20,691 bases of DNA from Candidatus Eiseniibacteriota bacterium. Its GTDB lineage: Bacteria; ARS69. A program made the translations under genes and the position numbers. The stretch covers positions 1 through 20,691 of the forward strand of contig JBQTGV010000081.1 of the NCBI GenBank assembly GCA_052390515.1, read 5' to 3'. The notes below the pieces were generated by a model that did no database searches, was not told where the DNA came from, and was given only the letters and a program-made list of their open reading frames with translations. Shown here in pieces: positions 3,542 to 19,557 of this stretch; within the stretch, counting starts at the first letter, position 1; every line of letters starts with the position of its first letter.

Positions 3542-5611
3542 TCAGCGGCGGACGACCACCTGTTGCGAGAGGCGTCCGTCCGGTGCGGCGAGGCGCACCC
3601 AATAGACCCCGGACGCGACCGGCGCGCCCGCCCCGTCCCTGCCGTCCCACCAGAGGGCGCGGGACCCCGCGGTCTGCGTCCCGCTCCACAGGGAGCGGAT
3701 CTCCCGCCCCGCGACGTCGTGGACCGAGACGCGCACCTCGCCGGGGCGCGAGAGGAAGTAGCGGATCTGCGTGAGATCCCGGACCGGATTGGGCGCCGGC
3801 GGATGCAGGGCGAAGGCCTGCGCGGCAGCCGCCTCCGGGCCCCAGTCGGCGGAGGTCGGCGCCAGGAATTGCTCGTCGAGGATCCAGTCGTCCGGGTCCA
3901 CCTCGAGCCCGGTCGGCTGCGCGCTCACGACGAAGGAGAACTCGTGCTCGGCGGAGTCCACGCGCTCGGAGAAGTCGAAGTCTCCGGAACCGGTCTGCAC
4001 GCGGAGGTCCACGGGCATGTCGAAGAGGCTCGCCGTGGTCTGCACCTGGCGGATGATCACGTCGACCTGCCACTGCCCGCCGCCCAGGTCCTCGGCCGAC
4101 CACCCGTACTCGTAGTGCGGGTGTCCCTCGCCGTACAGCCAGGGGTCGAAGAACCAGCTCATGTCCTCGCCGACCGTGGAGCTGACCGAAGTCACGAAGT
4201 CGGCGCTCTCCGCGTTGCCGTACTCGTGCGCCTGCAGGAAGTCACGGAGCGCCTGCCAGAACAGCGGGTCGTCGTCCAGCACGCCGCGCAGCATGTGCAG
4301 GACGCAGCCGCCCTTCTCGTAGTTGATGACCCCCCACTTCTCCGTCGGATCCACGACGCCGTCGACGATCCCGGAGTTGATCACCGGGTTCATCAGGCGA
4401 CTCGTCACGTGCGAGTGGTAGGCGCCCATCCCGCTCTGGTGCTCGAAGAACACCGCCTCGCTGTACGTGGCAAATCCCTCGGAGAGCCAGATGTGATGCC
4501 AGTCGGCGTACGTCACGCAGTCCCCGAACCACTGGTGGCCCATCTCGTGCGCCAGGATGTCGTCGTGCGAGTTCGTGCTGTCCACCAGGCTGATGGCGTG
4601 GCTCACGCAGGTCTGGTGCTCCATGTCCCCGATCGTCGTGGTCATGAAGGCGAACTTGTCGAACGGGTAGGGTCCGTAGCGGGACTCGAACGCCTGCATC
4701 ATCAAGTCCACGTACTGGAAGCTGACCTCGGAGGCGGCCTTGAATCCCGGGCTGTGGTACACGGTGATCCGCGGATCCGTGACGATCGTGTTCGACAGCG
4801 TCCGGTATGGCGCGACCGCGACGGCGATGAGGTACGTGCTGATGGGGAAGTCGTGCGACCAGTGCCAGGTGTGCCTCGTGGCGGTCGAGTCCACGCCGGT
4901 CAGCAGCCCGTTGGCGACCGCTACCTGCGAGAGCGGCGTCTCGATGTTCAGGTCCACCGTCGCCTTGTCGCAGGGCCAGTCGTAGCAAGGGAACCAGGAG
5001 AAGCCCATCGAAGGAGGATCCGCGGTGAGGCCCACCCCCATGGAGAACGCCACCTTGGGAATGAGCGACCACCAGAACCCGCCGAAACCGCCGCCGCCTT
5101 CGTTCGCCGGAAGTCCGGAGTAGGCGACGTCCACCACGACCGTGTCGCCGGTGTTCGCCGGTGCGGCCAGGGTCACGCCGAGGACGTCGCCCGCGTGCGT
5201 GAACCCCGTCGTTCCGTTCGGCGTCACCGTCACGGACGACACGGCCAGCTGCGTCGTCAGGTTCAGGTCGATCTGACCGAGGCCGTCGATCGTGGACGCG
5301 AGCGTGATCACGGTGTTGCCGTCGAGGATGGAGACGGCCGGGTCGAGGTTGTCGAAGTTCAGCTCGTAGTGCAGCACATCGAAGTCGTGCGGGCATCCGT
5401 CGACGGTTCGAGCGGCTGCGTGAGCCGGCTCGGTCCGGGAGCGCCAGCTCATCAGGGGATCCCGCGGGTCGGCGAGCGCATCGCCGGCCACCAGGCGGTG
5501 CCGCGCGGTGTGGCCGCCCCAGGTCCCCCCGGGAGCCGCCGCTCCCTCACCGGGGAACGAGGCCAGCAGCGCGGGGGCCGCCAGCAGGGCGAAGCACGAG
5601 GCGAGGCGCAT
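3542..5611 (-). CDS. Secreted M1 family zinc aminopeptidase with C-terminal FlgD-Ig (T9SS-CTD-like) domain
   Basis: HEMGH-x18-E zinc motif (AHEMGHQWFGD...WLSEGFATY), GXMEN-like GDMEH, YEKGGCVLHMLR. C-terminus PAPNPVRD...WDGRDGAGAPVASGVYWVRL. ATG 5611 gives signal peptide MRLASCFALLAAPALLA; the longer ORF-track start overlaps the ZIP gene. Confidence 0.93.
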   Translation of the reverse strand: MRLASCFALLAAPALLASFPGEGAAAPGGTWGGHTARHRLVAGDALADPRDPLMSWRSRTEPAHAAARTVDGCPHDFDVLHYELNFDNLDPAVSILDGNTVITLASTIDGLGQIDLNLTTQLAVSSVTVTPNGTTGFTHAGDVLGVTLAAPANTGDTVVVDVAYSGLPANEGGGGFGGFWWSLIPKVAFSMGVGLTADPPSMGFSWFPCYDWPCDKATVDLNIETPLSQVAVANGLLTGVDSTATRHTWHWSHDFPISTYLIAVAVAPYRTLSNTIVTDPRITVYHSPGFKAASEVSFQYVDLMMQAFESRYGPYPFDKFAFMTTTIGDMEHQTCVSHAISLVDSTNSHDDILAHEMGHQWFGDCVTYADWHHIWLSEGFATYSEAVFFEHQSGMGAYHSHVTSRLMNPVINSGIVDGVVDPTEKWGVINYEKGGCVLHMLRGVLDDDPLFWQALRDFLQAHEYGNAESADFVTSVSSTVGEDMSWFFDPWLYGEGHPHYEYGWSAEDLGGGQWQVDVIIRQVQTTASLFDMPVDLRVQTGSGDFDFSERVDSAEHEFSFVVSAQPTGLEVDPDDWILDEQFLAPTSADWGPEAAAAQAFALHPPAPNPVRDLTQIRYFLSRPGEVRVSVHDVAGREIRSLWSGTQTAGSRALWWDGRDGAGAPVASGVYWVRLAAPDGRLSQQVVVRR

Positions 5612-7331: not shown

Positions 7332-8221
7332 TTGTCCCCCCGCGAACCACCCGCACCGTCCATCAGCGGGCGCATGAGCTCCGAGTCCGAGGGCAGGACG
7401 AACGTCGTCTGATCGTCGAGGAACTTGCGGTACGCCTCGAGCGTGCGGGTGAACTCGTAGAACTCCGGGTCCTTGGCGATGGCCGCACCGAAGATGCGCG
7501 TCGCCTCGGCCTCACCCTCGCCGCGCAGGATCTCCGCCTGCTGGTACGCCTCGGCGAGGATCTGACTCTCCTCGCGGTCGGCCTGTGCGCGGATCTTGCG
7601 CGCCTCCTCCTCGCCCTCGGAGCGGTACCCCCGCGCGATGCGCTCACGTTCCGCGCGCATGCGTTCGAACACGCTGCGGCGGTTCTGGTCCGGGAAGGAG
7701 AGCCGCCGCACGTCGAAGTCGAGGACCTCGATGCCGAAGCGCGAGCGGGCCACTTCCCGCAGCTGCTGCTCGATGGCCTGCACCATGGTCGAGAGCGTCC
7801 GCTTCTCCGCCTCCGTGTTGATGAGCTGGTCGAAGGGAACGACCGCCAGGGAAGCGCCCAGCTCGGAGGCGAGCACGTCGGTGAGCTGGCTCCGGGCGGC
7901 GGCCTCCGACGGGACGGCTCGGAAGTACTGCAGCGGATCGGCCACGCGCCACACGGCGAAGTAGCTCACCACGACGTTCTTCTTGTCGTTGGTGAGGAAC
8001 TCGCCTTGCTGGGGCTCGAGCACCTGCAGGCGGGCGTCGAAGCGCCGCACCTGGTGGACGATCGGGATCCGGAAACGGAGCCCCGGTTCGGTGACGACCT
8101 GCACGGGATTGCCGAAGCGGGTCACCACCGCGGTTTCGGTCACGTCCACGGTGAAGAACGACCCCCAAAGCAGCGCCGCCGCGACGGCGAGCGCCGCGAG
8201 GACCATCCTTGCGTTCGTCAC
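7328..8221 (-). CDS. hflC: HflC-like SPFH/band-7 membrane protein
   Basis: N-terminal TM; AVVTRFGNPV, FDARLQ, FLTNDKKNVVV, VFERMRAERERIARGYRSEGEEEA, KDPEFYEFTRTLEAY are HflC hallmarks. Confidence 0.95.
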   Translation of the reverse strand: MTNARMVLAALAVAAALLWGSFFTVDVTETAVVTRFGNPVQVVTEPGLRFRIPIVHQVRRFDARLQVLEPQQGEFLTNDKKNVVVSYFAVWRVADPLQYFRAVPSEAAARSQLTDVLASELGASLAVVPFDQLINTEAEKRTLSTMVQAIEQQLREVARSRFGIEVLDFDVRRLSFPDQNRRSVFERMRAERERIARGYRSEGEEEARKIRAQADREESQILAEAYQQAEILRGEGEAEATRIFGAAIAKDPEFYEFTRTLEAYRKFLDDQTTFVLPSDSELMRPLMDGAGGSRGDK

Positions 8222-8225
8222 TGCG

Positions 8226-10394
8226 TCACTCTCCTTCCCCCTCGTCGGGCGCGGCTTCCCGCACCTCGCTGCCGCGGATCACGTCGCCGATCGCTTCGGG
8301 GTCCCCCGCGCCGGTGGAGATCCACAGGTCGACGCCGGCGGAGCCGCCCCAACCCGGTCGCACGATCTTGCGGCTCCCGGCGAGCACCTCCTCGACGGTC
8401 TCGAGGTACAGCCGCGTCCTGGCTCCGGTCCTGCGCGCGCGGTACGCATCGGATCGGAGGGCCAGGCTCGTGGACTCGCCCTGCGCGCGGAACACCTCTG
8501 CGGTGGCGAAGCTCTTCGCCGCCTCCACCTGCGCGACGGCGTCTCCCCTCGCCAGATTCACGGTCTCCACCAGGTACCTCCTGGCCACGTCGATGGCCGT
8601 GCGCTTGTCCTCTTGCGAGCTGGCCACGTCGCGGAACGCGGCGTGCACTTCCGGCGGCGCGTGCAGGTCGAGCACCCCGAAGCGCAGCACTTCCACGCCG
8701 AGCGGGAGCGCGTCGACCCTTCGCCGAAGGCCCTCTCCCACGCGCTGCTCGACCGTCCGCCGCAGATCGCCGTAGACGTGATCGATGCTGAGCGCCGCCA
8801 CCACGTCCACGATCTCGGCGATCGTCTCCGAACGCAGCACCGCCTCGGGATCCACGAACCCCCAGCGCCAGCGGGCCGCGTCGAGGATCCGATACTGCAC
8901 CACGGACTTCGCGTCGACGAGGTTCTCGTCTCCCGTGAGGAAGAGTGACTCCTCTTCCAGCAGCCGCGGAGCGTCGGGCGTCACCGGAGCAGCCAGCGTG
9001 TCCGGGCCGGCGCCCGAGGAGCGGAAGCCCAGCTCGAGCCGCCGGACGCCGTCCACGTGCACGAGCTCGGCGACCTCCAGCGGCACCGGCAGCTTGAGGT
9101 GCAGCCCCTCCCCCCGCGGCTCTCCTCGCGGCGCCCCGAAGCGCTGCACGAGCCCGCGGTGACCCGGAGGCACGATCAGCAGGCAGGTCGACGCCGCCCA
9201 CAGAACGAGGGCGACGACGGCCGCGCCGGCCAGGGTGGCGCGGCTCGGGCGAAAGCCGGTCAGCGAAGAGAGCGCGCGACCGACGGCGCGGAACTCGACC
9301 GGAGCCGGCGCTCTCAAAAACGAGAAGACCAGGAGCAGGGCGAAGGCGACCGACGCCGGCACCGAGATCCACAGCGGCAGGTGCGACACGCCGCCGGCCA
9401 CCGCGCGCGGATCGATGGCGAACGTGCGGTACGCGACGTCGAGCAGCACGCCGAGCACGACGCTGGTCACGCCGATCGTCACGAGGTAGATGATGGTCAC
9501 CCGGCGGCCCAGGAAACGTGAGAGGATGGCCAGCGATCCGATGTTCGTGGCCGGGCCGGCGAGCAGGAACACCAGCGCCGCGCCCGGGGACAGCCCCTTC
9601 ACGATGAGCGCCGCGGCGATGGGAGTCGAAGCGGACGCGCAAATGTACAAGGGGATCCCGATGGCCAGCATCACCACGTAGGGCAGCGGTCCAGCCCCGA
9701 GGTAGCGCGTCACGATGTCCGCGGGCAGCAGGAGCGTGATCAGCGCGGAGATGACCAGGCCGGCGAACATCCAGTGCGACGTCTCGTCGAACATCTCGAC
9801 GAACGCCTCCCGGAATCCGGCGCGGAGCTTCGCGGCCATGGACGATTCCCCGCCCGCCTTCCGCTCGGCGGCGGCGAGCGCGTCGTGGGTGTGGCCGTGG
9901 GTGTCGGGGGGACAGTCGTCGCAGGCGGGCGGCTCGGCGGCGGTCGGCTGTGCGGCCTCCGGCTTCACCTTCTCCTCCGGGCCGCCGAACAATTCCGTCG
10001 CGAAGCCCGCGGCGATGCCGGAGACCAGCGCGGCGATGGGGCGATAGATCGCCATCAACGGCCCCATGAGGCCCCAGGTCAGGGCGATGGCCTCCTCGCC
10101 CGTCTCCGGGGTGGAAACCAGGAAGGAGACCGTGGCCCCGCGGCTCGCCCCCCGCCGCCGCAGAGCCATGGCGGTCGGCAGGACCGAGCAGGAGCACAGT
10201 GGGAGCGGCAGGCCCAGCAGGGAGCCGGTGAAGATGGAGCGGAAGCGGCCGCGACCGAGCAGCCGCTGGATGAACGCGACGGGCACGAGCGTCTGGATCG
10301 CTGCGGCGACGACGAAGCCGAGCAGGATATAGGGGGAGGCCTCGAGAAAGACGAGGACGAGCTCGCGCAGGAATCGCCCGAGGAAGTCGATCAC
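8226..10394 (-). CDS. SO_0444/ArsP (PF03773-type) metal permease fused to a C-terminal HflK-type SPFH domain
   Basis: N-terminal about 360 aa: LPLCSCSVLP, FLVSTPETG, GIPLYICASASTPIAAAL, GAALVFLLAGPATN, central CDDC..HGHTH loop. After an extra TM, from about 9190: VQRFG..GLHLKLP, FLTGDENLV, HAPPEVHAAFRDVASS, RTRLYLETVEEVL. One continuous frame of 722 aa. Confidence 0.9.
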   Translation of the reverse strand: MIDFLGRFLRELVLVFLEASPYILLGFVVAAAIQTLVPVAFIQRLLGRGRFRSIFTGSLLGLPLPLCSCSVLPTAMALRRRGASRGATVSFLVSTPETGEEAIALTWGLMGPLMAIYRPIAALVSGIAAGFATELFGGPEEKVKPEAAQPTAAEPPACDDCPPDTHGHTHDALAAAERKAGGESSMAAKLRAGFREAFVEMFDETSHWMFAGLVISALITLLLPADIVTRYLGAGPLPYVVMLAIGIPLYICASASTPIAAALIVKGLSPGAALVFLLAGPATNIGSLAILSRFLGRRVTIIYLVTIGVTSVVLGVLLDVAYRTFAIDPRAVAGGVSHLPLWISVPASVAFALLLVFSFLRAPAPVEFRAVGRALSSLTGFRPSRATLAGAAVVALVLWAASTCLLIVPPGHRGLVQRFGAPRGEPRGEGLHLKLPVPLEVAELVHVDGVRRLELGFRSSGAGPDTLAAPVTPDAPRLLEEESLFLTGDENLVDAKSVVQYRILDAARWRWGFVDPEAVLRSETIAEIVDVVAALSIDHVYGDLRRTVEQRVGEGLRRRVDALPLGVEVLRFGVLDLHAPPEVHAAFRDVASSQEDKRTAIDVARRYLVETVNLARGDAVAQVEAAKSFATAEVFRAQGESTSLALRSDAYRARRTGARTRLYLETVEEVLAGSRKIVRPGWGGSAGVDLWISTGAGDPEAIGDVIRGSEVREAAPDEGEGE

Positions 10395-10429
10395 GCGCCT
10401 ACGTTAGGGCGATTCGGCAAAGCGAGCAA
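10395..10429 (-). promoter_or_regulatory. Sigma70-type promoter of the permease-hflK/hflC/hflK/ZIP operon, leaderless configuration
   Basis: -35 TTGCTC (10429-10424), 17 nt spacer, -10 TAACGT (10406-10401), 6 nt, then GTG 10394. Confidence 0.55.
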
Positions 10430-10463
10430 GGGAACGGGTCTGGCCGCAGCCGCGCCCTGCGCC

Positions 10464-10469
10464 TAGAAT
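10464..10469 (+). promoter_or_regulatory. Putative -10 element (TAGAAT) for the divergent TM-TPR gene
   Basis: Near-consensus hexamer in a GC-rich gap, 28 nt before GTG 10498, which has a GGAGG SD. The -35 is weak. Confidence 0.45.
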
Positions 10470-10497
10470 CCGGGTCGTTTCGCCGCCCGGAGGACTC

Positions 10498-12201
10498 GTG
10501 TCCGCCCACCCTTCCGCCCCCACCCCCCGTGAATCCGCCGCGCTCTTCGCCGCCGCCCTGCTGCTGCGCGCGGCCGCGTTCCGGCCGGGCCTCCCGCCGG
10601 CGCCTCCGGAGGCCGTCCTTCTCGGCCCGGAGCCGGGGCCCGTTCTGCTCGCGGCACGCGTGGGATCCCTGGTGCTCGGCGCGCTGGCGGTCGTGCTCAC
10701 CGCCTCCACCGCCGCCGCCCTCGGCGGGCGTCTCGCCGGCCTGGCGGCCGGGGCGCTCCTCGCCGCCGCACCCTTCGCGCTGAGCCACTCCGGCTGGGTC
10801 GGAGCTCCGGGAGCGCTGCTCCTCGCGGCCGCCGGATGCCTCCTGCACCTCGTCCGTTACCGGCTCGATCGACGCGCGCGGGACCTCGCGGCCGCGGCCG
10901 CCTGGTCGCTCGTCGGCATCGCCGGCCTTGCCTCGGCGCCGCTCACCAACGTGGCGCGCGAGGGCGTCGTGTCCCCGATCGTCGAAGCGATCGTCGAGTC
11001 CGGCCGCGCCGGCGGCTGGGCGGCGCTCGTGCTCGCCGCGGCCGGCGTCTGGCTCGCGGTGCGCGAGGCCGCTTCCCCTGCGCGAATGGTCGCGGTCGCC
11101 ACCGTGGCGATGCTCGTGATCGCGTTGCTCCGCGAGGGGCCGGATCCGCTCTCCATCGGCATCGCCCTTCCCGGGCTCACCGTGCTGGCCGGCATCGCAC
11201 TCGCCCGTGTTCCGATGGCGAAGAGGTCGCTCGTGTTCGCCGTCGCTGGGATCGTGACGCTGGTCGGCTCGGCGCTGGCCATCACCGCGAGCCGCGCGCC
11301 GGGACCGGCCGAGGCGGCTGCGGAGTGGGTACGGCGCAACGTCCCCAACGGCGCCGCCATCCTCGTCGGAGAGCCGGACCTCGAGCTTCCCGCGTTCGAC
11401 CTGGCTTCCGGCGCGAAGGGCTTCCAGCGGCTTCCGCTTCCGCCGCCGGGGACGAGCGGCGAGGAGGCGGACGCGTTCCTCGATCCGGAGATCGCCCGCC
11501 GGTTCGGCTGGCTCGTGCTCCGAGACCCGCCGGCTTCCGCGCGCGCGCCGCAGCGTGCGTTCCACGAGTTCTTCGACGCGGAGTGGGAGACCGCGGCGCG
11601 TTTCGGCGAGCGCGCGCACCCGGCGTCGCCGGTCACCGTGCTGCGCCGGCCGGAACCGTGGAAACCCGACTCGGCACGCGCCGCCGCATTCGCCTCGCGC
11701 TCCGCGCGGCTCTCGGCGCTGCGGGACACGAGCAGCGCGTTCGCCTCGTGGGCGCTGGCCGCGGGTGAAGCCTTCCGCGCCGCCGGGGACATCGAGTCGG
11801 CGGCCGACATGCTGGAGCTCGCCCGCGGTCAGGAGAGCGGCAACGCCGAGGTGTGGTTCGAGATCGGGCTCACCCGCCTGCTGGAGCAGCGCTTCGAGGA
11901 GGCGATGTCCGCGTTGCACCGGGCGATCCGCATCGATCCCGGTCACGGCCCCGCGCACTACAACCTCGGCTCGTTGCTGGAACGCGAGGGCGACCTGAGT
12001 GGGGCCGAGACCGAGTACCGCGCGGCGATTCCGCGACTCGCCGATCCGACGCCCGCTCACACGCGCCTCGGCGTGGTCCTCACCCTGAGGGGCAGTCTCG
12101 AGGAGGCGCGCGTCGAGCTGGAGGCGGTGCGGCGCCTCGCTCCCGGAAGCGATGCGGAGGCCGTGCTCCTGGAGGCGATCACGCTGGCCGAGCGGCGGTA
12201 G
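10498..12201 (+). CDS. Multi-pass membrane protein with C-terminal TPR repeats (possibly degenerate GT-C/ArnT-like)
   Basis: GGAGG before GTG; several hydrophobic Ala/Leu helices in the first 270 aa; AAAEWVRRNVPNGAAILV is typical of the soluble domain after GT-C membrane domains; TPRs AEVWFEIG, AIRIDPGHGPAHYNLG, AHTRLGVVL. Confidence 0.7.
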   Translation: MSAHPSAPTPRESAALFAAALLLRAAAFRPGLPPAPPEAVLLGPEPGPVLLAARVGSLVLGALAVVLTASTAAALGGRLAGLAAGALLAAAPFALSHSGWVGAPGALLLAAAGCLLHLVRYRLDRRARDLAAAAAWSLVGIAGLASAPLTNVAREGVVSPIVEAIVESGRAGGWAALVLAAAGVWLAVREAASPARMVAVATVAMLVIALLREGPDPLSIGIALPGLTVLAGIALARVPMAKRSLVFAVAGIVTLVGSALAITASRAPGPAEAAAEWVRRNVPNGAAILVGEPDLELPAFDLASGAKGFQRLPLPPPGTSGEEADAFLDPEIARRFGWLVLRDPPASARAPQRAFHEFFDAEWETAARFGERAHPASPVTVLRRPEPWKPDSARAAAFASRSARLSALRDTSSAFASWALAAGEAFRAAGDIESAADMLELARGQESGNAEVWFEIGLTRLLEQRFEEAMSALHRAIRIDPGHGPAHYNLGSLLEREGDLSGAETEYRAAIPRLADPTPAHTRLGVVLTLRGSLEEARVELEAVRRLAPGSDAEAVLLEAITLAERR

Positions 12202-12345: not shown

Positions 12346-12960
12346 ATGGCGCACGCACTCCCACCGCTTCCTTACGACTACAAGGCGCTCGAGCCGCACA
12401 TCGACGAGCAGACCATGCGGCTGCACCACGACATGCACCACAAGGCCTACGTCGACGGCCTGAACGCCGCCGAGGAGAAGCTCGCCGGCATGCGGCAGAG
12501 CGGGGACTTCGCCCAGGTGCAGGCCGTCGAGCGCGCGCTCGCGTTCCACGGCTCCGGACACATCAATCACTGCGTGTTCTGGGAGAACATGTCGCCGAAG
12601 GGCGGCGGGGCGCCGGGCGGGGACCTGGCGGCGCGCATCAACAAGGACTTCGGCGGCATCGACCCGTTCAAGAAGCACTTCTCCGCGGCGGCCGCGTCCG
12701 TGGAGGGCAACGGCTGGGGGATTCTCGCGTGGCACCCGATGGCCGGACACCTCTTCGTGCTCGCCTCGATGAACCACCAGAACCAGGGAATCCACGGCGC
12801 GATCCCGCTGCTCCTGCTCGACGTGTGGGAGCACGCCTACTACCTCAAGTACCAGAACAAGCGTGCCGCGTACATCGAGGCGTGGTGGAACGTCGTGAAC
12901 TGGGCGAACGTGGCGGAGCGCTACGACCGTGCGCGTTCGCTCGAGGCCAAGACGGTCTGA
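12346..12960 (+). CDS. sod: Fe/Mn superoxide dismutase
   Basis: LPPLPYDYKALEPHI, HHDMHHKAYV, GHINH..FW, DVWEHAYYLKYQN signature. Confidence 0.98.
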   Translation: MAHALPPLPYDYKALEPHIDEQTMRLHHDMHHKAYVDGLNAAEEKLAGMRQSGDFAQVQAVERALAFHGSGHINHCVFWENMSPKGGGAPGGDLAARINKDFGGIDPFKKHFSAAAASVEGNGWGILAWHPMAGHLFVLASMNHQNQGIHGAIPLLLLDVWEHAYYLKYQNKRAAYIEAWWNVVNWANVAERYDRARSLEAKTV

Positions 12961-16976: not shown

Positions 16977-18035
16977 ATGGCTACTCCCGAGAGAGTCCTC
17001 GAAACCCTCCAGGATCTGCGTCTGGACCCAGCGCCGAAGAGCATCGTCGCGCTGGGGATGATCGTCGAACCGACGGTCCGCGAGGGGCGCGTGCGCCTCA
17101 CGCTGGAAATGCCGTCACCGGCGCATCCGCGGACGGACGCGCTGGCCGCCGCGGTGCGGCAACGGGTCGCCGCGCTCGACGGCGTCGCCTCCGTCGACGT
17201 GGAGACGACCTGGCGCGTGCGCGAGGGCGACTTCAAGAAGCCGGCCATCCCCGGCGTCAAGAACGTGATCGCGGTGGCCAGCGGCAAGGGCGGCGTCGGC
17301 AAGAGCACCGTCGCCGCGAACCTGGCCGCGGGGCTGCACGCGCTCGGCGCTTCGGCCGGGCTCCTGGACCTCGACATCTACGGCCCGAGCGTCCCGGTTG
17401 TCCTCGGGGACGACAGCGAACCGCGCGTCGCCGGCGGCGAACGCCTGCTCGCCTCGGAAGCGCACGGCCTTCGCTTCCTGTCCATGGGCCAGCTGGCCCG
17501 CGGGGACAGCCCGGTCGTGTGGCGCGGGCCGATGCTGCACAAGATGGTGATGCAGTTCGCAGACGCCGACTGGGGCACGCTCGACTACCTGATCCTCGAT
17601 CTCCCGCCCGGCACGGGAGACGTGCAGCTCACCGTGACGCAGCAACTGCCCGTTTCCGGTGCGCTGATCGTGACGACGCCGCAGGAGATCGCTTTGATCG
17701 ACGCGCGCAAGGGGCTGCGCATGTTCCGCGAGGTGCACGTGGCGGTCCTCGGCCTCGTCGAGAACATGTCGAGCTACCGCTGCCGCAAGTGCGGGAAGGA
17801 GCATGCGCTGTTCGGCACCGGCGGCGGCGCGAAGCTCGCCGCGGAGGAGGGCGTGCCGCTGCTTGCGCGGCTGCCGCTCGATCCGGAGATCAGCGCGAGC
17901 ACGGGCGCCGGCGTACCCATCGCGTTCGGGAAGGGCGTTCTCGCCGACGCGTGGCGCCGTCTCGCCGCGGAGACCGCCGCCGCCGCGGCCACGCTCTCCC
18001 TCGCCAAGAGCCCGTTCAAGGTGCTCGCGTCGTGA
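16977..18035 (+). CDS. mrp: Mrp/NBP35/ApbC Fe-S cluster carrier ATPase with N-terminal DUF59 (FeS_assembly_P) domain
   Basis: [48 protein letters not shown]-terminal [13 protein letters not shown]...[11 protein letters not shown]. Confidence 0.95.
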
Positions 18036-19284: not shown

Positions 19285-19557
19285 ATGGCTCGCATGGTGA
19301 AGTGCGTGATCCTGGGCAAGGAAGCGGAGGGACTGGACTACCCCCCCGTCCCGGGCGAGCTCGGGCGAAAGATCTACGAGGGCGTGTCCAAGGAGGCGTG
19401 GGCGCAGTGGACCGGACTGCAGACCATGCTCATCAACGAGTACCGGCTGAACCTGGCCGACGAGCGCGCGCAGAAGCTCCTCATGGAAAAGCTCGAGGAG
19501 TTCCTCTACGGGCAGGGAATCGAGCCGCCGCCGGACTACGTGCCGCCCTCGACCTGA
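19285..19557 (+). CDS. yggX: Fe(II)-trafficking / oxidative damage protection protein YggX
   Basis: Tail of ORF 17803..19557: [53 protein letters not shown]...EEFL; conserved Cys7 present; SD GGAGG. Confidence 0.95.

Follow-up and report, generated by a model that had tools for sequence, protein, structure and literature searches.

An SO_0444/ArsP-family permease fused in frame to an HflK-like SPFH protein and encoded together with HflC and a second HflK in Candidatus Eiseniibacteriota

In a genome of a Candidatus Eiseniibacteriota bacterium (GenBank assembly GCA_052390515.1) we analysed positions 1 to 20,691 of contig JBQTGV010000081.1, a stretch of 20,691 nucleotides (nt) called the window in the following. 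One of its genes encodes a protein of 722 amino acids (aa), in which a metal permease of the SO_0444/ArsP family is joined to an HflK-like member of the SPFH protein family. This fusion is real and not an artefact, and it is followed by genes encoding HflC and a second, free HflK. We regard it as rather probable that the permease is anchored covalently to one subunit of an HflK/C-type assembly, together with HflC and the free HflK.

We found no paper joining SPFH or HflK with ArsP, DUF318, PF03773 or SO_0444, nor one describing the fusion. The fusion family appears to be unstudied, and the combination of an SPFH scaffold carrying a covalently bound client with a pair of HflK paralogues appears to be new. 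In public records the fusion protein goes under the name 'SO_0444 family Cu/Zn efflux transporter' or under 'HflK'; our finding corrects this split annotation of one protein. Despite many recent structures, the effect of SPFH cages (HflK/C, stomatin, prohibitin, flotillin, erlin) on the membrane proteins held by them is still debated, and clients are hard to define. Here, a small metal permease seems to have become a client fixed by evolution to one subunit of a cage, and two further subunits were kept across several phyla. Being compact and expressible, the three-gene system could reveal the position of a client relative to the ring, the composition of mixed rings and the effect of the scaffold on transport.

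The fusion gene and its conservation

The initial annotation had described a single unbroken frame of 722 aa, and the list of open reading frames (ORFs) contains this frame with a GTG start and without a stop (Table 1). Pfam assigns ArsP_1 (PF03773) to aa 15-318 (3.8e-51; 174.4 bits at a cut-off of 32.3) and Band_7 (PF01145) to aa 407-605 (1.1e-17). From NCBIfam, the SO_0444 Cu/Zn efflux equivalog NF033936 is passed with 370.6 bits (threshold 300; aa 14-356, positions 3-348 of the 351 of the profile), and the hflK equivalog TIGR01933 matches aa 407-678 with 139.9 bits, which is under its cut-off of 159.4. The permease including its ninth transmembrane (TM) helix stops at aa 361 (nt 9312), in agreement with the border of about 9310 proposed before. 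An amphipathic linker had been proposed as well: aa 366-379 form a 14-residue helix with a hydrophobic moment of 0.51 and a mean hydrophobicity of 0.07. The further TM helix proposed behind it is present in the AlphaFold2 model and aligns with the N-terminal TM helix of the free HflK. Finally, the SPFH and coiled-coil HflK region is complete, with the stretch RLYLETVEEVL at aa 661-671.

The full-length model was built on an alignment of 112 fused homologues (predicted local distance difference test score, pLDDT, 81.9; predicted template modelling score, pTM, 0.64). It contains an eight-helix core in two halves with breaks at LPLPLCSC (aa 62-69), TPET (95-98), PLYICASAS (248-256) and GPATN (280-284). 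TM9 (aa 341-361) precedes the TM helix of the HflK part, behind which the SPFH strands and helices, a 73-residue helix (581-653), a further helix (655-670) and two C-terminal strands follow. The central loop of the permease is disordered in the model at aa 137-168, with a pLDDT below 50 at aa 147-167; its mean composition in the 112 fused proteins is 12.3 D+E, 7.2 K+R and 2.5 His. The cysteines C67, C69 and C252 are invariant in these 112 proteins and likewise in 40 fused and unfused permeases. Two residues of the junction, S358 and P365, never vary, and R361, E367 and G380 are nearly invariant.

Unfused members of the family (NF033936; PF03773, TC 2.A.119) share the 8+1 helices and the invariant PLPLCSC and C252 motifs. 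They are stand-alone proteins of about 340-420 aa, whereas in the 722-aa fusion their basic tail is replaced by the linker and HflK. That this second half is HflK-like and not HflC-like is evident from a phmmer comparison with all solved chains, matching E. coli HflK only (3.1e-24), and from the best Foldseek matches, which are the HflK chains 7vhq_E, 9cz2, 9paw and 7wi3. From its TM helix through the C-terminus it aligns with the free HflK of the operon at 30% identity.

In the architecture search (PF03773 plus PF01145) suggested with the initial annotation, all 120 best matches of the window protein carried both domains at 40-93% identity; they come from NCBI, JGI, ENA and Logan assemblies. 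The same was true for the 120 best matches of a Burkholderiales homologue used as query, both searches admitting only proteins of about 400-1270 aa. Each of the 11 other genomes of the window's family contains the fusion, nine of them as a full single frame, one (G005) in two pieces and one (G009) cut by the contig end. From a metagenome scan with the fused-type HflK domain as seed, 80 loci were retained, 54 of them with at least 1150 bp of upstream DNA, and the fusion was in frame and free of stops in 50 of these 54 assessable loci. Within a sample of 400 genomes from the class of the Burkholderiales homologue, the long fused frame was present in the seed genome only (the unpublished G084, G186, G341 and G353 were counted as negative, and one further genome was unscored). 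In plasmid records, none of 88 matches covered 80% of the fusion protein. Almost all genomes with the fusion come from uncultured organisms.

A lost stop, a frameshift or a chimeric assembly might have produced such a long frame, and a few relatives do have stops, frame changes or another N-terminus. Run X1 is probably the source sample; its public contigs are identical to the window over 8000-10500 and leave 8688-8702, 9233-9260 and 9837-9884 uncovered. Contig 17 of the independent run X3 covers 8866-9266 with 20 substitutions and zero gaps. Because no single public contig spans the whole junction, the conserved homologues are the main proof of the fusion. At the junction itself (9190-9320), where the initial annotation had called for read mapping, no insertion or deletion is listed in the public contigs, and the architecture occurs with invariant junction residues in hundreds of independent assemblies from several sources, so that the probability of an artefact is practically negligible.

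Two loci (L and G numbers are our handles for loci and genomes) differ in other ways. At L146:2119-4110, a 663-aa ORF combines part of an aminotransferase of class III with an HflK domain of the fused type, which looks like a rearrangement that removed the permease. In an Alphaproteobacteria metagenome-assembled genome (MAG; L012:6001-9216), permease, HflK part and HflC lie in one frame of 1071 aa, and the end of HflK runs into the start of HflC without a stop (...GAGSEVMARHPR...). A triple fusion would be topologically awkward, and this frame is probably due to a lost stop with internal initiation or to an assembly error.

Table 1. Features of the fusion gene and of its surroundings in the window (aa positions are those of the fusion protein unless a length is given)
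Feature	Position (nt)	Strand	Basis and remarks
Fusion gene, SO_0444/ArsP-family permease and HflK-like SPFH protein in frame	8226..10394	minus	722 aa; ORF list, Pfam, NCBIfam, AlphaFold2
Permease domain, aa 1-361, 8-helix core of two repeats plus TM9	9312..10394	minus	NF033936, domain model
LPLPLCSC motif, aa 62-69, break of first helical hairpin	10188..10211	minus	Alignments
Central loop, aa 137-204, acidic, His/Cys-rich (CDDC..HGHTH), predicted cytoplasmic	9783..9986	minus	AlphaFold2 model, loop composition
PLYICASAS motif, aa 248-256, break of second hairpin	9627..9653	minus	Alignments, AlphaFold2 model
Junction, aa 362-384, Pro-rich turn, amphipathic helix 366-379, basic stretch, predicted cytoplasmic	9243..9311	minus	
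TM helix of HflK part, aa 385-402, predicted cytoplasm to periplasm	9189..9242	minus	AlphaFold2 model, alignment with free HflK
HflK-like body, aa 403-722 and stop codon, SPFH, long coiled-coil helices, C-terminal strands, predicted periplasmic	8226..9188	minus	
hflC of the module, 297 aa	7328..8221	minus	TIGR01932, 208 bits; GTG start
Free hflK of the module, 307 aa	6408..7331	minus	TIGR01933, 210.1 bits, over cut-off
ZIP-family metal transporter, 238 aa	5695..6411	minus	PF02535, 2.5e-34
Secreted M1 zinc metallopeptidase with FlgD_ig-type C-terminal domain	3542..5611	minus	Peptidase_M1, 1.7e-29; signal-like start at 5611
Sigma-70-like promoter TTGCTC-N17-TAACGT	10401..10429	minus	Both hexamers conserved upstream of the fusion gene in 8 relatives
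Metal-related genes of the divergent flank	12346-12960, 16977-18035, about 19290-19557		

The three-gene module and its paralogues

The fusion gene is tightly linked to the genes following it. Only 4 nt separate its stop codon from the GTG start of hflC, with GAAGGAG lying within the last codons of the fusion; the start of hflK overlaps the stop of hflC by 4 nt, as does the start of the gene encoding the ZIP-family transporter with the stop of hflK (ATGA). The order fusion, HflC, free HflK was found at five of five distant genome loci (an unclassified bacterium, Burkholderiales, Zixibacteria, Alphaproteobacteria and Phycisphaerae) and at all eight loci fetched from the window's family. At the metagenome loci, HflC came next in 71 of 71 assessable cases, and the free HflK followed HflC in 48 of 49; the 49th locus has a free HflK too, behind a split HflC match. 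At the 75 loci of unfused SO_0444 permeases, where split and adjacent forms were sought, no SPFH neighbour was found.

In many relatives the module is part of a larger cassette of five genes, encoding an extra HflC, an FmdA_AmdA-like protein (acetamidase/formamidase family), the fusion, HflC and HflK (L149, L151-L153, L162, L167-L172, L010 and L012, among others). The extra HflC was present at all 22 loci with enough upstream DNA, the FmdA-like cluster at 45 loci. The window's family is without these two genes and has the ZIP and M1 peptidase genes instead. Among the neighbour clusters across the 80 metagenome loci were FmdA_AmdA-like proteins, tetratricopeptide repeat (TPR) proteins and Lon (4 loci). 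Ten loci with a second HflK-like match contained HflK-like and HflC-like genes only, i.e. nine adjacent pairs and one HflK alone at a contig end.

Band_7 is matched eight times in the source genome, and a separate hflK-hflC pair on contig 45 is among these matches. Fused, free and housekeeping proteins were compared in a maximum-likelihood tree of 64 SPFH sequences, in which the L111 rows are long branches. The K side and the C side were split at 100/100, with the fused domain on the K side. Of the free HflK proteins of the modules, 13 of 14 fell into one clade (98/88), of the housekeeping HflK proteins nine of ten (98/95). Both together form a joint clade (70/99), outside of which all 14 fused domains are placed. 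On the C side, the housekeeping HflC clade (100/98) is apart from the HflC of the module, and the extra HflC of the five-gene cassette groups with the housekeeping HflC (94/91).

The initial annotation regarded the free hflK as retained in the operon. Its presence there is confirmed, but the term retained is misleading, as the free HflK shares only 30% identity with the fused domain and is placed with housekeeping HflK in the tree; it is thus not a leftover of the fused domain. This low identity, the grouping in the tree and the separate housekeeping hflK-hflC pair indicate that the module is an old, dedicated system of three paralogous subunits rather than an ordinary hflKC pair plus a transporter.

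Compared with the HflK/HflC-FtsH complexes of E. coli (PDB 7VHP, 7VHQ, 7WI3, 9CZ2, 9PAW), the C-terminal 340 residues of the fusion have the same build, with 26% identity to the HflK chains in Foldseek, and hflC is likewise the next gene. In contrast to E. coli HflK, a 9-TM permease takes the place of the N-terminus, the fused domain is under the TIGR01933 cut-off and it stands outside the housekeeping clade. Furthermore, the module has two HflK paralogues per HflC (two HflC in many relatives) in the order K'-C-K.

In a FastTree phylogeny of the permeases, 33 of 34 fused sequences were in one clade with a local SH-like support of 93. The fusion likely arose mainly once, and a second origin is possible from these sequences. 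In a Thermoanaerobaculia MAG (L076:5800-7400) the frame of an otherwise unfused permease (ArsP_1 at aa 69-342) runs on into an ABC_tran ATPase from aa 460, which may be another fusion partner of the permease.

Fold and topology of the permease

A model of the permease domain alone (pLDDT 86.5, pTM 0.83) was compared with solved structures. VIA-align gave the highest Z values for ArsB (12.8) and Pho90 (12.4), followed by INDY, TRAP-QM, YdaH, VcINDY, DiT1, CNT and NaS1 (10.4 to 7.6), the next match being at 5.3. Thirteen elevator-type chains matched at Z 12.8-7.6 over model residues 1-328, a comparison of a model with structures in a Z range where helical bundles can match by chance. With the elevator transporters (ArsB, DASS/INDY, TRAP-QM, AbgT/YdaH, CNT), to which 227-277 residues could be aligned, the permease model would share two hairpins and two broken helices carrying conserved motifs; unlike these, the permease is much smaller and only 7-13% identical, and it is compared as a model and not as a structure. 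The helix breaks of the model coincide with the conserved motifs, and the loop charges fit the hairpins. As a by-product of our study, the model suggests an elevator-type fold with two re-entrant hairpins for permeases of the ArsP/SO_0444 family. A sequence analysis assigned ArsP to the TOG superfamily and proposed a 4+4 topology for it (PMC7176098), an arrangement, as far as described there, unlike that of our model.

The distribution of positive charges is consistent with this fold. In the 112 fused proteins, the mean number of K+R is 4.1 in loop 1-2, about 3 in loop 2-3 including the helix end, about 2.6 in loop 7-8 and 4.3 in the linker, to which basic helix ends are added. The values for the N-terminus (0.75) and for loops 5-6, 6-7 and 8-9 (about 1 each) are low. 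Both loops around the CxC hairpin would be basic because the helix pairs bearing the motifs are re-entrant hairpins in the elevator fold. An alternating topology with 10 TM helices, as would follow from a 4+4 TOG-type model, was rejected, since loop 2-3 with its strong positive charge would then face outside. This conflict disappears in the hairpin model derived from the fold match, which also predicts a cytoplasmic position of the central metal-binding loop.

Unfused relatives end 339-424 aa after their start and have a K/R-rich tail past TM9, which in several cases is rich in Cys and His too. Of five such relatives scanned as full ORFs, three have a C-terminal heavy-metal-associated (HMA) domain, a cytoplasmic metal-binding module. 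These three are SO_0444 permeases from Bacteroidota and Calditrichota MAGs (L060, L068, L073); Cys/His-rich tails of others contain CGCG, HGHDHGHEH or CCSSKK. The loop charges, the HMA tails of the unfused relatives and the match to elevator folds all point to a cytoplasmic C-terminus of the permease. A cytoplasmic N-terminus, in turn, is required by HflK. HflC and the free HflK of the module have short N-termini with a basic residue before and acidic residues after the TM helix. For the fusion protein, we infer a topology with the N-terminus outside, nine crossings plus two hairpins, a cytoplasmic linker and a predicted periplasmic SPFH part.

Tethering to an SPFH scaffold and metal transport

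According to our model, a 9-TM, cysteine-lined metal permease would continue from its cytoplasmic C-terminus via the amphipathic linker into the TM helix of a diverged paralogue of HflK. The periplasm would then contain the SPFH, coiled-coil and cap regions of this paralogue. The fused subunit, the translationally coupled HflC and the free HflK would build a ring or cage of the HflK/C type, and a tether of about 23 residues would keep the permease at the membrane foot of the SPFH assembly. The scaffold would thereby confine, cluster or gate the permease, possibly also the co-transcribed ZIP transporter.

The initial annotation took the fusion as a Rosetta-stone argument for physical tethering of the transporter to the HflK/C ring. 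This can be upheld as an inference only, but it is strengthened by the strictly joint occurrence of the three genes in several phyla and by the predicted cytoplasmic location of both joined termini. In this sense, there is good support for a permease tethered to a mixed SPFH assembly. The three SPFH proteins would co-assemble with a mixed use of fused and free HflK, and transport may be affected. It is also plausible on steric grounds that the free HflK limits the number of permeases per cage, as had been proposed. A complex prediction with alignments for the fused HflK part (aa 362-722), HflC and the free HflK gave 0.11 and 0.02 against a mark of 0.32, and was counted neither way.

Several observations weigh against such a tethered permease as described here. 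The fused domains form one group in just 24% of the bootstrap trees. Being below the TIGR01933 cut-off and outside the HflK clade, the HflK part may have changed its partners or its type of oligomer. In the permease tree, the Phycisphaerae fusion (L018) stands apart, and the unfused L076 nests within the fused clade. Among the 54 assessable metagenome loci, four lack a clean fusion because of one stop (L169), a change of frame (L179 and L194) or a different N-terminus (L146). The topology rests on charge statistics, on domains of relatives and on a predicted fold. Finally, the co-transcription of a permease named for efflux with a transporter of the ZIP family, usually seen as importers, lacks an explanation.

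This last point concerns the direction of transport, for which efflux is suggested by the family name and by a zinc-stress phenotype of a related Shewanella gene. Alternatively, the module may serve the uptake or allocation of zinc under shortage, the permease importing metal or handing it over together with ZIP in an uptake patch organized by the scaffold. This is a real, though tentative, possibility. The ZIP gene is translationally coupled to the module in the window and follows it in seven of eight loci of the family. Elsewhere it was found beside the module in L010 and in five of the 80 metagenome loci, and beside three of the 75 unfused permeases. A secreted zinc peptidase is encoded downstream, and the fold relatives comprise importers as well as exporters.

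Further support comes from P. aeruginosa PA2437-PA2439 (PaFlo5-7), likewise three genes of the HflK/HflC family in one operon beside a metal transporter, the P-type ATPase and importer HmtA. A survey of P. aeruginosa SPFH proteins from 2026 noted these three SPFH genes as one operon (PMC13086221); in contrast to the module of the window, a fusion to a permease is not mentioned for them in the accessible part of that survey. These genes were reported to be 9- to 14-fold induced on zinc depletion and are counted in the Zur regulon (PMC4542158, PMC11761036, PMC9431628, as far as accessible). A kinship of these genes with our module is putative, and no Pseudomonas name occurs among the fusion homologues listed (the 120 best matches of each search and the clusters). 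The NF033936 equivalog for Cu/Zn efflux, which the fusion passes clearly, argues against a role in acquisition, as do the cytoplasmic HMA or Cys-rich tails of unfused relatives, which are common in exporters. In Shewanella loihica, a related gene beside ZntR is highlighted in a figure on zinc-stress fitness and called another heavy metal efflux gene (10.1101/072470, in the accessible part). Moreover, neither a Zur-like palindrome nor another palindromic operator was seen upstream of the fusion gene in the window and in 8 relatives, and among the five distant genome loci only L010 has a neighbour of the zinc type.

HflK/C cages are known to hold FtsH hexamers and to modulate the proteolysis of membrane proteins. 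The fusion could therefore place the permease into an FtsH-HflK/C-type complex for rapid degradation, or for protection, on need. Among solved structures, the SPFH part is indeed closest to E. coli HflK chains from FtsH-HflK/C complexes, and both the free HflK and the HflC of the module reach the cut-offs of their equivalogs. We nevertheless consider such an adaptor unlikely, since the genome has a separate housekeeping hflKC pair, and no recurrent ftsH-like neighbour was found in the clusters from the 80 loci, the scanned cluster representatives including no M41 peptidase.

Also unlikely is an extension of the tethering model, in which the three SPFH proteins would form a periplasmic cage with wall-attached permeases, moving metal into or out of a sealed private chamber with its membrane patch, perhaps shared with ZIP. 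Such a metal nano-compartment would buffer or sequester metal or hand it to exported zinc enzymes, and the ratio of fused to free HflK would set the number of pumps per cage.

HflK-type proteins and HflC are known to be obligate partners, and the three genes of the module are translationally coupled and were never apart in the samples examined. It is thus quite improbable that the fused HflK part homo-oligomerizes or anchors the permease alone and the downstream hflC and hflK encode a separate complex sharing the operon, even if the fused domain represents the lineage of HflK that has diverged most and other SPFH proteins, e.g. stomatin, form homo-oligomeric cages according to the titles of their PDB entries.

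The proposed tethering of the permease resembles known associations of SPFH proteins with membrane partners. In stomatin cages (PDB 9ZD2, with bound aquaporin-1; PMC13724742), as far as described, an SPFH oligomer bounds a membrane patch and associates with channels and transporters. Whereas stomatin associates with them non-covalently at the cytosolic face of a eukaryotic membrane, our system has its client within one polypeptide with the scaffold subunit, and its predicted cage lies in the periplasm. SPFH-NfeD pairs such as E. coli QmcA-YbbJ (PDB 8Z5G) likewise consist of a bacterial SPFH protein and a dedicated membrane partner encoded alongside; unlike the partner in our module, NfeD is not a transporter and is unfused, and the SPFH protein is of a single type.

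Within the window's family, all six loci extending far enough have the M1 peptidase gene after the module. In the window it lies 83 nt downstream of the ZIP gene, with an inverted repeat within the gap, and it may be the last gene of the transcription unit. Upstream of the fusion gene, the -10 hexamer of the promoter is only a few bases before the GTG start, predicting a nearly leaderless mRNA. In eight relatives the same hexamers precede a leader of about 50-60 nt bearing AAGGAG.

On the other side of the operon, the divergent flank of the window encodes a Fe/Mn superoxide dismutase, an Fe-S P-loop NTPase of the Mrp/NUBPL type and a YggX-type Fe(2+)-trafficking domain, so that metal-related genes flank the operon on both sides. 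At the locus of the unclassified bacterium (L009:6631-8866, minus strand), genes of DUF2063 and of the MbnB/TglH/ChrH family are located directly downstream of the module, a pair associated with copper-related peptide modification. Finally, a conserved GGATTCTAG at 10463-10471, upstream of the promoter, gives TAGAAT on the opposite strand, possibly the -10 element of a divergent TPR gene.

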